Shown: positions 28,885 through 62,804 of the stretch, piece by piece
How positions within the stretch are numbered: position 1 is the stretch's first letter
How the letters are laid out: every line of letters starts with the position of its first letter
DNA from: Paludibacteraceae bacterium
GTDB taxonomy: Bacteria; Bacteroidota; Bacteroidia; Bacteroidales; Paludibacteraceae
Reading direction: 5' to 3'
DNA: 64,000 nucleotides
NCBI GenBank assembly: GCA_016937795.1
Contig: JAFGVV010000065.1
Location: 6,429-70,428 of the forward strand
Made by a program: the position numbers and the translations under genes
Notes under the pieces: model-generated
The model's database searches: none
Told to the model about the DNA's origin: nothing
Seen by the model: the letters and a program-made list of their open reading frames with translations, nothing else

Positions 28885-28943
28885 GACAAAGGTCAAAGGT
28901 CAAAAGTCTAATGTCTTTTGTCTTTGCTCTTTGTTCTTTTGTC
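28885..28943. repeat. Head-to-head arrays of a 6-7 nt CAAAG/CTTTG unit separated by 4 nt
   Basis: GACAAAGGTCAAAGGTCAAAAGTC-TAAT-GTCTTTTGTCTTTGCTCTTTGTTCTTTTGTC. Confidence 0.8.
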
Positions 28944-28946
28944 TCT

Positions 28947-58441: not shown

Positions 58442-59452
58442 ATGAAAAAACCACCAATTACCATTAAAGATATTGCAAGGGCACTCAGTATTTCTCCCTC
58501 CACAGTGTCGCGTGCTCTTAAAAATCATCCTGATATCAGTCAGGATACCAAGGATGTGGTGAATCAATACGCCAAGGAACACAATTATAAACCTAACACT
58601 CTTGCATTAAGCCTTCGTATGAGTAAAAACAATACGATAGGTGTGATTGTTCCTGAAATTGTTCACTATTTCTTTTCTTCTATTCTTTCGGGTATCGAGC
58701 AAGTGGCTGATGCCGAAGGTTATAATGTGATTCTTTGTCAGTCGGACGAGAGTTACGAAAAAGAGGTGCGTAATACCCGTGCGCTGGTAGCTACCCGTGT
58801 GTCGGGGGTACTGGCTTCGTTGGCAAAGCATACCACAAATTACGATCATTTTCAGGAAATTATTGAAAGTGATATCCCATTGGTTTTTTTCGACCGTATA
58901 TGTATTGGTATTAACACCGACCGTGTGGTGGTGGACGACTATGCAGGAGCTTTTGCGGCTGTGGAATATCTGATACAGTCGGGTTGCAAACGTATTGCTT
59001 TTTTCAGCTCGCCACCACAACTTGAAATCTCCAAAAACCGTAAAAATGGTTATCTCGATGCACTTCGTAAATATGGTCTGAAGGTGGATGAATCGCTGAT
59101 CAGAATTTGCGATACGCGCGAAGAAGCTATCATTATCACCCCCGAAATACTCGATCATCCTGATCGCCCCGATGGTTTCTTTGCTATCAACGATCATTGT
59201 GCTGCCGGAATTCTTTATGCCTGCAAACTGGCGAATCTACGCGTGCCCGAAGATGTGTCGATCATGGGTTTTTCGGATGGAGAACTTGCCAAAGCCTGCG
59301 ATCCTATGCTCAGTACTGTAGAACAACATGGTTACGAAATGGGAAAATATGCTGCCAAATTACTGATTGACAAAATAAATGGTGTGACTCATGGTAAATA
59401 TACTAACAAAATTGTGAAAACGAATTTGATTATAAGAGGAACGACTAAATGA
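58442..59452 (+). CDS. LacI-family transcriptional regulator
   Basis: HTH TIKDIARALSISPSTVSRAL, YKPN, IGVIVPEI, VFFDR and STVEQ; start MKKPPIT (58442). Confidence 0.95.
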   Translation: MKKPPITIKDIARALSISPSTVSRALKNHPDISQDTKDVVNQYAKEHNYKPNTLALSLRMSKNNTIGVIVPEIVHYFFSSILSGIEQVADAEGYNVILCQSDESYEKEVRNTRALVATRVSGVLASLAKHTTNYDHFQEIIESDIPLVFFDRICIGINTDRVVVDDYAGAFAAVEYLIQSGCKRIAFFSSPPQLEISKNRKNGYLDALRKYGLKVDESLIRICDTREEAIIITPEILDHPDRPDGFFAINDHCAAGILYACKLANLRVPEDVSIMGFSDGELAKACDPMLSTVEQHGYEMGKYAAKLLIDKINGVTHGKYTNKIVKTNLIIRGTTK

Positions 59453-59456
59453 ATCA

Positions 59457-59506
59457 GATTTGAAAATTTGAGATTTGAAGATTTGAAGAATTTGAAGATT
59501 TGAAGA
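59457..59506 (+). repeat. Left arm: six tandem ATTTGA(A/G)-type 7-9 nt units
   Basis: GATTTGAAAATTTGAGATTTGAAGATTTGAAGAATTTGAAGATTTGAAGA, starting 4 nt after the lacI stop. Confidence 0.9.
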
Positions 59507-59537
59507 ATAGAGAGGTGCGAAATTAAATCAATATATT

Positions 59538-59936
59538 ATGGCTACATATAATCGATTTGAAGATTTGGATGTTTGGAAGAAATCCCGAACAATGTGTAAG
59601 AATATTTATATTATAACAAAGAAGTCTGCCTTTTCAAGGGACTATGCTTTGAAAGATCAGATTCTTCGTTCCTCGGGTTCTGTAATGGATAATATTGCTG
59701 AAGGGTTTGAACGCGAAGGCAATAAAGAATTTATAAATTTTCTATCAATTGCAAAAGGATCGTGTGGTGAGACTCGTTCACAGTTATATCGTGCATTTGA
59801 TTTTGAATATATCGATAATAATGAGTTTAAAGAATTGATTGAAGAAAATATAGAAATAGCCGGATCTATCAAAAATTTTATGAGTTACCTGAAGAATGCA
59901 GATATCAAAGGAAATAAATTTAAAACGGCAGAATAA
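59538..59936 (+). CDS. Four-helix-bundle protein (23S rRNA IVS protein / Avd-like family)
   Basis: [46 protein letters not shown] and YL at the C-terminus; 132 aa. Confidence 0.93.
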
Positions 59937-59962
59937 ACAAGCATAATTTCGGGTTACGATAA

Positions 59963-59995
59963 TCTTCAAATTTTCAAATTACAAATTTTCAAATT
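59963..59995 (-). repeat. Right arm: four tandem TTCAAAT-type units, an inverted copy of the left arm
   Basis: The reverse complement matches 59457-59489 at 29/33 positions; it ends 7 nt before the MFS start codon. Confidence 0.9.
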
Positions 59996-60002
59996 ATTTA
60001 TA

Positions 60003-61532
60003 ATGAAACCTCGTCTAAGCTTTTGGCAAATCTGGAACATGAGTTTTGGATTTTTGGGTATTCAGTTTGGGTTTGCTTTGCAGAATGCGAATGTGAGCCG
60101 TATTTTTGAAACGCTGGGTGCTGAGATTGATCAGATTCCGGTGTTGTGGCTGGCTGCTCCTGTTACAGGATTGATTATTCAACCTATTATAGGTCATTGG
60201 AGCGATAAAACATGGACGCGCCTGGGACGCCGCAAGCCTTTCTTTCTTTTCGGGGCTATTTTTGCTTCGCTGGCCATACTTTTTATGCCCAACTCGTCGA
60301 CCTGGCTGATTGCTGCCGGTACGCTCTGGATAATGGATGCGTCGATTAATATTTCGATGGAACCTTTTCGTGCTTTTGTGGGCGATATGTTGCCTTCGGA
60401 ACAGCGTACACTGGGTTTTTCGATGCAGAGTTTCTTTATCGGACTGGGTGCTGTGGCTGGCTCGGCATTGCCTTATGTGCTGGCTAATTGGTTTGGAATT
60501 GCCAATGTGCCTCAGGGGCATGAATTGATTCCGGATACTGTTCGCTTGTCGTTTTATATTGGCGGTGTGGTGTTTTTGCTTTCGGTGTTAGTGACTATTT
60601 TTACTACGAAAGAATATTCACCAGAAGAACTGGCAAATTTTGAAAAACATGAAAATGCAGCTGCTAATGTAGCTGAAATGCCTGCTGCAAAAGAAATTCC
60701 GGTTGGACGTTTTGTGAATTTTGGATTATTTTTTGCTACACTGGCAATAGCTATCGGAGGTTTGGTTTATTTCCTGTCGCTCGATGTACAGATTTATATT
60801 CTTACCGGTGTTTTTATTCTGATGGCTTTGATGTTTTTTGTAGTGGCTGGCATGCAACGCGATGAAAAGCATAACGGACTTACGGAGATTATGACCGACT
60901 TGATGAATATGCCACGCACAATGGGACAACTTGCAGTGGTGCAGTTTTTTACCTGGTTGTCGCTTTTTGCAATGTGGATTTATACTACTTCGGCTGTAAC
61001 GGCTTATCATTATGGTGCGACCGATTCAGCCTCTGCGCTCTATAACGAAGGAGCCAACTGGACAGGCGTGCTTTTCGGAGCTTACAGTCTGTTTGCTGCT
61101 ATGGTCGCATTTTTACTTCCGGTAGTAGCAAAGCAAATTTCACGGAAAATGACACATTTGGTTGCGCTTATTATTGGCGGTTTGGGTTTGATATCGATGT
61201 ATGTATTTAAAAATCCCGATATGTTGTTGGTGAGTATGTTTGGAGTAGGTATTGCCTGGGCAAGTATTTTGTCGATGCCCTATGCTATGCTAACCGGAGC
61301 ACTTCCGGCTGCCAAAATGGGTGTGTATATGGGTATTTTCAATTTTTTCATTGTACTTCCGCAGATTCTGGCGGCGTCAATTTTGGGTAGTGTTACCAAG
61401 CATTTGTTTGGTGGTGAGGCTATTTATACGCTTGTGTTCGGAGGTGTGGCTATGATTATTGCTGGAGTTCTGACTTTGATTGTGGAGGATAAAGACGATC
61501 CTTATCAGATAAGGAAAAAGAACCGCAGATAG
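60003..61532 (+). CDS. MFS maltose/maltodextrin transporter (SLC45/MalT-like)
   Basis: QIWNMSFGFLGIQFGFALQ, QPIIGHWSD.TWTRLGRRKP, MDASINISMEPFRAFVGD, SILSMPY and MGVYMGIFNFFIVLPQI. Confidence 0.93.
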   Translation: MKPRLSFWQIWNMSFGFLGIQFGFALQNANVSRIFETLGAEIDQIPVLWLAAPVTGLIIQPIIGHWSDKTWTRLGRRKPFFLFGAIFASLAILFMPNSSTWLIAAGTLWIMDASINISMEPFRAFVGDMLPSEQRTLGFSMQSFFIGLGAVAGSALPYVLANWFGIANVPQGHELIPDTVRLSFYIGGVVFLLSVLVTIFTTKEYSPEELANFEKHENAAANVAEMPAAKEIPVGRFVNFGLFFATLAIAIGGLVYFLSLDVQIYILTGVFILMALMFFVVAGMQRDEKHNGLTEIMTDLMNMPRTMGQLAVVQFFTWLSLFAMWIYTTSAVTAYHYGATDSASALYNEGANWTGVLFGAYSLFAAMVAFLLPVVAKQISRKMTHLVALIIGGLGLISMYVFKNPDMLLVSMFGVGIAWASILSMPYAMLTGALPAAKMGVYMGIFNFFIVLPQILAASILGSVTKHLFGGEAIYTLVFGGVAMIIAGVLTLIVEDKDDPYQIRKKNRR

Positions 61533-61568
61533 AAAAAATGCAGATGAGAATGTATTTCTGAAAAGTAA

Positions 61569-61684
61569 AATCACTTACAAACACAGAGAAAGTACTTACA
61601 ATCACAGAGAAATCACAGAGAATCACAGACAATTCACTTACAAATCACAGTACTATCACAGTATTATCACATACCCATCACTTA
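61569..61684 (+). repeat. Array of 11 TCAC-like cores spaced 10-11 bp apart
   Basis: Cores start at 61571, 61581, 61592, 61602, 61613, 61623, 61634, 61645, 61656, 61667 and 61678. Confidence 0.8.
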
Positions 61685-61713: not shown

Positions 61714-61809
61714 ATGAAACGAGCCATGAGCAATAACTCACACAAAGAGATGATTATCATTGGCGAGTTCCAACTGACAAATCATAAAAATGAAAAAATA
61801 AACAGATGA
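61714..61809 (+). CDS. Possible 31-aa micro-ORF coupled to the next gene
   Basis: MKRAMSNNSHKEMIIIGEFQLTNHKNEKINR; its TGA overlaps the next ATG (ATGA). Confidence 0.25.
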   Translation: MKRAMSNNSHKEMIIIGEFQLTNHKNEKINR

Positions 61810-62804
61810 AAAATATCATTCAGAATGAAGCCGGAAATCTTATAGAAACAGATTTTTTGCAGCGAAAATCTTCGGATTCCGAAACGCTTTTTTCGCTCGG
61901 AAACGGAAAAATGTTTCAGCAGGGGAATTTTGAGGAGTTTTTCTCGGGCGAAACAGTGTCGGGTTCGTACACTAAAGGACTTGACGACTCGATTTTCGAA
62001 AATTCCGGAGCCTGGAAAATGCCCTACAATCCGTTTGCCAAAATGATGATCAATACGCCCGACTGGACTTCGATAGTTTTAAGGCTGAATGACGAAATTG
62101 TGGACCTCAATGTAAGTAAGGTTACGAATTACAGTCAGGTGCTGAATGTGCGTGAAGCCTCTCTTGAGCGGATTTTTGATTTGGAAACGCCGCGCGGACA
62201 TCAGATAAACATTAGTACCAAGAGGTTTATCAGTTTCGACGAACTTCATACTGCTGTGATAAGTTACAATATCAGAAGTCTGAATTTCGAAGGACGCATT
62301 TCGTTGATGCCGGTGCTCAATGGCGATGTGACGAATGATTACACTAAACTCAATCAGCTGCGCTGGAATGTGCTTCAAACACGCACTCAGCGCGATGTGG
62401 CGCATATATGGACGCAGGTCAGATTGCACGATTTTCATACCTGTCCGGCAATGTCGTATTCATTTTTTAAAAATAATGAAGAGATAAAAAGTATTGCGGC
62501 CAAGATTGAAAAGGAAAAGGTAGCCGGATATTCGGTTGGTGCCGATGTGCGTAGCGGCGACCGACTGACATTATATAAATATATAGCTTTGCTGAATTCT
62601 TCTGAATTTCCACGCAATACACTTGCTGAACGTGCCTGTGAGCTTTCGTTGTTTGCCCGGCAGAATGGCTGGAATGCTTTGTTCGATGCACATTTACATG
62701 CATGGAATAATATATGCAAGGCAATAACTGAAAAATCACAATTATCAACCGAAAAGGAAAATGAGATGTTATTGCACTTATTGAACCAATATTGTAAGTA
62801 TTAA
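61806..62804 (+). CDS. GH65 (maltose phosphorylase-like) N-terminal domain only; catalytic domain absent (truncated gene or pseudogene)
   Basis: SETLFSLGNG..QQGNFEE, MINTPDW.SI, TKRFIS and YSVGADV resemble the GH65 N-domain. The ORF stops at 332 aa, 10 nt before the GH13 start. Confidence 0.75.
   Translation: MKNIIQNEAGNLIETDFLQRKSSDSETLFSLGNGKMFQQGNFEEFFSGETVSGSYTKGLDDSIFENSGAWKMPYNPFAKMMINTPDWTSIVLRLNDEIVDLNVSKVTNYSQVLNVREASLERIFDLETPRGHQINISTKRFISFDELHTAVISYNIRSLNFEGRISLMPVLNGDVTNDYTKLNQLRWNVLQTRTQRDVAHIWTQVRLHDFHTCPAMSYSFFKNNEEIKSIAAKIEKEKVAGYSVGADVRSGDRLTLYKYIALLNSSEFPRNTLAERACELSLFARQNGWNALFDAHLHAWNNICKAITEKSQLSTEKENEMLLHLLNQYCKY

Follow-up and report, generated by a model that had tools for sequence, protein, structure and literature searches.

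A tandem-repeat-armed four-helix-bundle gene as a candidate passenger cassette at a lacI-transporter junction of a Paludibacteraceae bacterium

We analyzed a stretch of 64,000 nt (hereafter, the window; contig JAFGVV010000065.1, positions 6429–70428, assembly GCA_016937795.1) from the genome of a Paludibacteraceae bacterium, in which the gap between a lacI-family regulator gene and the gene for a sugar transporter of the major facilitator superfamily (MFS) is occupied by a small gene for an S23p-family four-helix-bundle protein (PF05635), bracketed by two arrays of short tandem repeats (the arms). The assembly has 3.74 Mb in 73 contigs, with 40.7% G+C, and is 95% complete. Our main conclusion, to which we assign a probability of about 0.6 together with the mechanism proposed below, is that positions 59453–60002 constitute a discrete passenger cassette, lying in the intercistronic gap as a unit in sense orientation. 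The alleles of relatives show that gene and arms are acquired together, replaced by those of the other type, damaged or lost, and the evidence for this turnover (gain, type swapping, decay, loss) at a single operon junction, drawn from many related genomes and metagenome contigs, is unusually clear.

Orthologous lacI-MFS junctions were collected from members of the genus and from 80 metagenome contigs (LacI 56–89% identical; 77–89% for the orthologues in the 80 metagenome loci), and 78 of them could be classified. An intact cassette was found in 25 junctions and a broken one in eight, with a frameshift in L156, a 5′ truncation in L182 and L183 and an internal deletion in L223; another 13 held remnants or other inserts, such as the arrays alone in L197, and 32 were empty, with the MFS start only 11–47 nt beyond the lacI stop and without arrays. 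At least nine changes between filled and empty states are needed on the LacI tree, in which the outgroup is empty. A first-pass annotation of the window, made from its letters alone, had described a gene that fills the lacI-MFS junction, and all the features it listed are seen in the sequence; it took gene plus arms for a cassette that inserts at gene junctions and named fixation at this junction across relatives as the contrary outcome. The empty alleles, together with the broken and remnant ones, bear out the former. Apparent sister pairs of carrier and non-carrier genomes did not recur in the LacI-only tree and were not used, and the metagenome scan returned no strain-level relatives of this genome (best LacI match, 89%).

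The intact cassettes form two protein clades, with ~60% identity between types. Type 2 comprises ten loci, including that of the window, with proteins of 132–134 aa and arm words of 8–9 nt such as AGATTTGA or GTTTGAAGA, and type 1/3 comprises 15 loci with proteins of 137–147 aa and 7-nt arm words such as GTTCCGT, GTTTCGK and GGGTTTC; without exception (25 of 25), the class of the arm word tracks the type of protein, and the word class of the window arms makes up the arms of all ten type-2 cassettes. Both types are intermixed in the LacI tree, to the point that pairs with LacI proteins 97–99.3% identical carry four-helix-bundle proteins that are just 58–67% identical. For instance, loci L146 and L020 have 99.3% identity in LacI and 61% in the four-helix-bundle protein, and the pairs L179/L018, L186/L202 and L159/L160 follow the same pattern. 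The nucleotide sequences of L146 and L020 are 92–98% identical through lacI, 30–70% over the interval bounded by the lacI stop and the MFS start, and 90–98% in the MFS gene. Because similarity is lost exactly with the lacI stop and regained exactly with the MFS start, the gene and its arms are a single replaceable module that extends to the outer arm ends. The window protein's subfamily is single-copy per genome and, within the genus, is found only at the lacI-MFS junction. Arms match each other better within a locus (29–30) than between loci of the same type (~23; p 0.013–0.027), and cross-type matches are at background (7.6). Even among cassettes in unrelated contexts, the 6-mer similarity of the arms rises with protein identity, from a cosine of 0.07 (<45% identity) to 0.28 (≥70%), with a Spearman coefficient of 0.27. 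The first-pass annotation had spoken of a transposase-free mobile cassette; these comparisons support the word mobile solely in the sense that cassettes are gained, swapped and lost on an evolutionary timescale. We found no mechanism, target duplication or recent copy.

The S23p/Avd-like family is large and extends over many bacterial phyla, and we know of no function for it other than that of Avd in diversity-generating retroelements (DGRs). The 132-aa window protein matched PF05635 ("23S rRNA-intervening sequence protein"; E 1.5e-36, 125.3 bits against a cut-off of 33.8) and TIGR02436 ("four helix bundle protein"; E 1.3e-34, 118.7 bits against a cut-off of 24). PF05635 was its sole Pfam domain, with no HUH/Y1 (IS200-like) transposase domain, and PADLOC returned no match for it. 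Its AlphaFold model (predicted local distance difference test, pLDDT, 91) has helices at residues 11–27, 36–58, 62–88 and 94–120, and its best structural matches are Xcc0516 (2GSC; template-modelling, TM, scores 0.81/0.90–0.94) and BT_0352 (2RLD; 0.72/0.87), followed by Avd of the Bordetella phage DGR (4DWL; 0.73/0.88) and chains of the DGR ribonucleoprotein. Entries 2GSC and 2RLD were each deposited with five chains. As modelled, the window protein shares the Xcc0516/Avd fold, in line with the homology to Avd put forward in the first-pass annotation, and its sequence identity to Avd is 9%. The RxxxSxxxNxxE motif conserved in the PF05635 family (PMC3936711) is present as R44, S48, N52 and E55; position 48, N52 and E55 are invariant in sequence set A2, and R44 is invariant in set A1, with S48 and E55 nearly so. 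Among orthologues of both cassette types dN/dS is ~0.09, which points to strong purifying selection and, therefore, to a functional protein.

The organization of the locus is summarized in Table 1. The left arm begins 4 nt past the lacI stop; at the other side, 6 nt separate the right arm from the MFS ATG. Between the outer parts of the arms, a repeat finder paired 59458–59489 with 59963–59994 (32 nt, 91% complementary, 29/32), and an imperfect inward extension of the stem pairs 59489–59525 with 59944–59980 (76% complementary). The agreement of 29 of 33 arm positions counted in the first-pass annotation, and the three G-over-A differences that would give G-U pairs in the sense RNA, were both correct when checked by hand. 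The inner 8-bp inverted repeat that it had singled out is present, but on its own it is within chance (a rough estimate of ~0.1 for two AT-rich stretches of 50 nt) and we treat it as a piece of the imperfect extension of the stem. To score the flanks, the upstream flank was locally aligned against the reverse complement of the downstream flank; the inverted score of the window gene was 24.5, against a median of 9.0 and a 95th percentile of 11.5 among 502 control small genes of the same genome, and its arms are thus far beyond chance. The hairpin formed by the arms alone has a predicted energy of -45.3 kcal/mol (z = -8.8), and the predicted fold of the full sense RNA of 571 nt also pairs the arms (z = -2.95); folding this region was a check proposed in the first-pass annotation. 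A scan against Rfam gave no credible match, and there was no rRNA match in the region.

Table 1. Features of the lacI-MFS junction, in window coordinates.
Feature	Position	Strand	Basis and remarks
lacI-family regulator gene, upstream flank	58442–59452	+	Pfam LacI and Peripla_BP_3/1; TGA stop at 59450–59452
Left arm, array of the 8-nt word (A/G)ATTTGA(A/G), ~6.4 copies	59456–59508	+	Tandem Repeats Finder (TRF) unit AGATTTGA, TRF right edge 59506/8; inverted-repeat pairing
A/T-rich leader, left arm to ATG	59509–59537	+	Contains CGAAATTA (59518–59525), the left side of the inner inverted repeat (8 bp); belongs to the imperfect stem extension
Four-helix-bundle gene, 132 aa, PF05635/TIGR02436	59538–59936	+	Profile matches, AlphaFold model, dN/dS
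Trailer, stop codon to right arm	59937–59960	+	Holds TAATTTCG (59944–59951), right half of the inner inverted repeat
Right arm, array of AATTTTCA/CAAATTTT, ~4.5 copies	59961–59996	+	TRF unit AATTTTCA; reverse complement of the left-arm word
MFS sugar transporter gene, downstream flank	60003–61532	+	Pfam MFS_1/MFS_2

Two relatives have type-1/3 cassettes with a right arm that extends into the MFS coding start: in L014 (genome G020) the in-frame ATG comes from the last ATGAAC unit, and in L020 (genome G006), where the conserved N-terminus has no ATG ahead of it, translation of the transporter may begin at a Met further downstream. Several contigs of relatives (among them those of L016 and L021) begin or end inside an arm, and 11 arrays are located at contig ends in the assembly studied here; because arrays break short-read assemblies, cassettes are likely under-counted in metagenome-assembled genomes. 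Downstream of the MFS gene, another array (61568–61671; ~8 copies similar to AATCACAGAG) precedes the gene for a glycoside hydrolase family 65 N-terminal domain, and its period of 10–11 nt is unlike that of the cassette arms; that gene is an open reading frame (ORF) of 332 aa (61806–62804) matching this domain alone (PF03636), with no catalytic domain in frame.

The repeat-armed layout is not restricted to the window gene. The genome contains six PF05635 genes, the other members being 18–31% identical to the window protein, and all six are tightly bracketed by short-period tandem arrays, each with its own word, in inverted orientation in four cases and in direct orientation in two. Considering as armed any gene with a flank score of at least 14, the threshold used in all samples, the score was reached by 25 of the 502 small genes of the genome, including the six PF05635 genes, and by 19 of 496 controls (~4%); the hypergeometric probability of finding six of six armed is ~8e-9. 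Beyond this genome, arms were present in 24 of 26 loci from relatives, in 61 of 74 close homologues across Bacteroidota, and in 16 of 22 loci of genomes labelled as Kiritimatiellia, Desulfobacteraceae, Balneolales and others, where the arm words are GC-rich. Overall, 107 of 128 loci are armed (~83%) across the four samples, which are not random draws from the PF05635 family; the layout is therefore usual in the sampled lineages, although not universal. These figures speak against one contrary outcome named in the first-pass annotation, a lack of inverted repeat flanks in other family members; in a minority of the loci the arms are direct.

Of 41 related genomes, 37 have PF05635 genes, with 1–16 copies each, and a number of the matches listed have internal stops. 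The neighbours are co-directional at ~80% of the loci and the genomic contexts are varied, with 82 neighbour clusters among 154; the sufB/C/D operon in Flavobacteriia and Cytophagia is one of them, and insertion of the family in cas operons was reported previously (PMC3936711). Genome G005, from the same genus, has 14 PF05635 matches, several of the listed ones with in-frame stops, and an empty lacI-MFS junction, and looks like a graveyard of decaying cassettes. Among the other armed small genes of the genome studied here (G000) there are two IS200-like genes of the type of REP-associated tyrosine transposases (RAYTs), flanked by inverted REP-like hairpins (G000:C70:58064-58520 and G000:C5:63844-64357), two GxxExxY/PDDEXK-like genes and one DUF559-like gene surrounded by their own arrays or inverted repeats (G000:C22:150533-150923, G000:C57:24905-25331 and G000:C41:45603-46074), and a few others, the names being assigned by visual inspection of the proteins. 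Packaging of a gene between its own repeats may therefore be common to further families of small genes.

The genome also contains 239 arrays with a period of 7–9 nt (6.4 per 100 kb), whose commonest words are those of the arms of the window cassette. Spacers that separate co-directional genes hold 166 of these arrays, and for 218 no inverted partner lies closer than 200 nt; some adjoin ordinary genes, such as ispF, nth or that of a response regulator. In a search allowing up to three mismatches, (GATTTGAA)x3 occurred 89, 35, 31 and 112 times in four type-2 carriers, 18–24 times in type-1/3 carriers, and 0–5 times in nine non-carriers, with 17 occurrences in the tenth, G013, whose assembly is broken at the junction. 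Similarly, the type-1 carrier G010 has 257 occurrences of (GTTCCGT)x3, although GTTCCGT-like arrays are also present in G011 and G004, both devoid of the window-protein subfamily, and (GGGTTTC)x3, contrary to prediction, showed no specificity for its carrier G006. In the genome studied here, solo arrays matched arms of a resident gene (one of six) in 56–61% of the cases and the arms of the non-carrier G002 in 8–27%; conversely, solo arrays are rare in 371 kb of G002, with seven, four of which match its own four-helix-bundle arms and 0–1 foreign arms. Nevertheless, arrays from the genome studied here match the arms from G010 at 52–60%, and word classes are common to several genomes, which makes the cross-genome control weak. 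A lenient 7-mer test of solo arrays against arms (89% versus 37% in the control) was too permissive, and alignment scores with a cross-genome matrix took its place. The correlation between gene and arrays across genomes was calculated ignoring phylogeny. Within the window, positions 28887–28944 contain head-to-head arrays with no gene, (CAAAGGT)x3 facing (TGTCTTT)x4.7 across 4 nt, and these words are of the class seen in the arms of another four-helix-bundle cassette of this genome (G000:C22:163269-163586).

We propose that the cassette was inserted as one unit exactly between the lacI and MFS cistrons and would be co-transcribed with both. In the operon RNA the arms would pair in a duplex of ~32 bp or more, which RNase III may cut, by analogy with the 23S rRNA intervening sequences that carry an ORF; the cut would release the four-helix-bundle message and separate the host cistrons, making insertion in an operon tolerable. 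The arms might at the same time be the cognate nucleic-acid sites of the protein, which is probably pentameric, and this would account for the type-specific words, the variants with direct arms and the solo arrays of the same words.

Several observations weigh against this proposal. About 15% of the armed loci have direct arms, and at such loci the gene cannot be looped out. The sense-strand G-U bias that the first-pass annotation had read from the window arms does not extend to the family: mismatches between arms over 99 loci include 151 sense-wobble and 152 antisense-wobble transitions, along with 341 transversions, and the three of four seen in the window are a matter of local chance. Duplex energy favours the sense strand at 61 loci and the antisense strand at 38 (p 0.04), a weak asymmetry. 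With no wobble bias and a weak energy asymmetry, selection on an RNA stem is not demonstrated; the complementarity of the arms is maintained, with no sign across these loci that the RNA stem is the selected trait. RNase III domains (PF14622, PF00636) were not found in this 95%-complete assembly, probably due to an assembly gap; RNase III was found in six of the eight members of the genus tested. With respect to movement, there is no catalytic domain, target-site duplication, conserved end motif or near-identical second copy of the cassette in any genome, and the ends of the cassettes share no conserved motif or target-site duplication across the junctions compared. The best flank identity between filled and empty alleles is 80–84%, which is too distant for exact insertion or excision boundaries, and consequently the insertion point and a target duplication cannot be defined. 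Lastly, ordinary homologous recombination in the conserved flanks could explain the exchange of types.

Other explanations were considered as well. RAYTs are encoded by single-copy genes lying between inverted copies of their own repeat, and are accompanied by dispersed REP hairpins, the combination known as RAYT/REPIN. By comparison, the window cassette could be a master copy whose protein maintains or spreads arrays of its own words in trans, with the ~50 solo arrays of the same words as dependants. We regard this as possible but doubtful. It would fit the prevalence of the window arm words among the 239 arrays, the preference of solo arrays for resident over G002 arms, the abundance of (GATTTGAA)x3 in type-2 carriers as opposed to most non-carriers, the many (GTTCCGT)x3 sites of G010 and the single copy of the gene per type, besides the identical layout of the RAYT genes with REP flanks in this same genome. 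Yet the association between carriers and arrays has no phylogenetic control, does not hold for (GGGTTTC)x3 or for the GTTCCGT-like arrays of G011 and G004, and is blurred by the sharing of word classes among genomes and by the false matches of the lenient k-mer test; furthermore, the protein lacks known catalytic residues, and most arrays are solo and do not form hairpins. Rather unlikely, in our opinion, is a purely RNA-level regulatory or processing element, the emphasis of the first-pass annotation, in which selection would keep a stem by which the gene is looped out of its mRNA, and the arms would regulate translation of the MFS gene. The absence of an excess of sense G-U over A-C mismatches, with transversions as the commonest change, and the existence of cassettes with direct arms speak against it, and the need for a stem alone leaves type-specific, tandemly repeated words unexplained, however well it would agree with the strong predicted stem, the closeness of the right arm to the MFS ATG, the repeats that supply or overwrite the MFS start codon in L014 and L020, and the precedent of the rRNA intervening sequences.

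The arms might also be passive, that is, slippage-prone microsatellites of AT-rich spacers with the gene merely among them and with alleles shuffled by homologous recombination. Arrays are indeed common in this genome, also beside ispF, nth and the response regulator gene, and heptamer repeats are over-represented in some bacterial genomes (PMC4692102), but we consider this explanation very improbable in view of the six of six PF05635 genes that are armed, compared with 3.8% of controls, the empty alleles devoid of arrays, the co-segregation of arm word and protein type in 25 of 25 cases at one site, and the same layout with GC-rich words in other phyla. Finally, that the gene is a remnant or accessory (Avd) gene of a DGR is hardly tenable. 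The fold matches Avd and the DGR ribonucleoprotein chains, and PF05635 is the commonest family beside DGR reverse transcriptases (PMC10053308); however, identity to Avd is very low and no reverse transcriptase (PF00078) was found in the whole genome, or around the gene in the window, which implies that the window gene is not a DGR component.

The passenger cassette that we favour has its closest parallel in the ORF-bearing intervening sequences of 23S rRNA from Leptospira, Coxiella burnetii, Brucella and Xanthomonas, which contain a member of the same family in the loop, with the ORF in the sense of the host transcript. In Coxiella, the S23p ORF is in the loop of an inverted-repeat stem, with three tandem heptamers (GACAGAT x3, in variable number) on the 5′ side, and the first of these is where RNase III cuts (Warrier et al., 2016; PMC4990558), which strengthens the parallel drawn in the first-pass annotation. 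In both cases the inverted repeats enclose the ORF as a long stem and the distribution is sporadic, with mobility proposed in spite of there being no known enzyme; for the intervening sequences, the proposal is attributed to Ralph and McClelland (1993), as cited in PMC4990558. They differ in that the intervening sequences are found in helix 25 or 45 of the 23S rRNA, instead of between lacI and an MFS gene, and in that the window arms are long arrays of 8-nt words, with two exchangeable types, each with its own words, at one site. Additionally, the ORF from Coxiella is decaying and probably untranslated (PMC4990558), whereas that of the window is clearly under purifying selection.

Other known systems share part of these features. 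In apparent similarity to RAYT/REPIN systems, there are flanks made of the gene's own repeat, repeats of the same class scattered in intergenic regions and a repeat type for each gene type; unlike them, the window protein is a 132-aa helical bundle without an HUH/Y1 domain, the repeats of this genome are mostly solo tandem arrays and not palindromic REP doublets, and the dependence of the arrays on the gene is correlative. Avd from DGRs (PDB 4DWL, 8UBE) has the same four-helix-bundle fold and is a pentamer that binds nucleic acid and the reverse transcriptase, but the window genome has neither a reverse transcriptase nor template and variable repeats, aside from the low identity. In contrast to an insertion sequence or a miniature inverted-repeat transposable element, the window cassette has no target duplication or conserved ends, and each of the six PF05635 members of the genome has different arms. 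Intergenic heptamer arrays, sometimes as inverted pairs and of unexplained function, were described in Xanthomonas (GGGAATC) and Nostoc (GGGGA(C/T)T), and three tandem heptanucleotides were reported for Calothrix (PMC4692102). These resemble the arrays analyzed here in being tandem 7-nt intergenic words, often in inverted pairs and with a length that varies between close relatives, although that literature does not link them to PF05635 and those of the window genome are tied to gene type. Our literature search found no paper linking the PF05635 family to repeat-armed operon cassettes, and the mRNA-junction form of a cassette similar to intervening sequences thus appears to be undescribed in print.

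The 23S rRNA intervening sequence, the only habitat described for the family, has been an oddity since 1993. The cassette examined here places the design of a gene within a repeat stem inside ordinary operons, where cassettes alter the spacers between host cistrons and, at times, the start codons of host genes, and where their arrays break assemblies; it also turns the vague idea of a selfish element into one that is experimentally approachable. A bolder reading, which we offer tentatively, is that PF05635 proteins and arrays of 7–9-nt words are the two halves of one widespread system, in which each protein type recognises its own word, its cassette, with the gene between two arrays of that word, colonises transcribed junctions, these being operon spacers or, as the classic intervening sequences, 23S rRNA helices, and solo arrays of the same word are sustained or spread throughout the genome. 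Because phylogeny was not controlled for and word classes are shared among genomes, we rank this system of genes and arrays as the boldest open reading and not as our main conclusion. The cassettes nonetheless provide a possible explanation of the heptamer and octamer arrays in intergenic regions and, if the two halves do belong together, the long-unexplained excess of intergenic heptamers in many bacteria, such as Xanthomonas, Nostoc and Calothrix, like the arrays in this genome, would be the footprint of that system.

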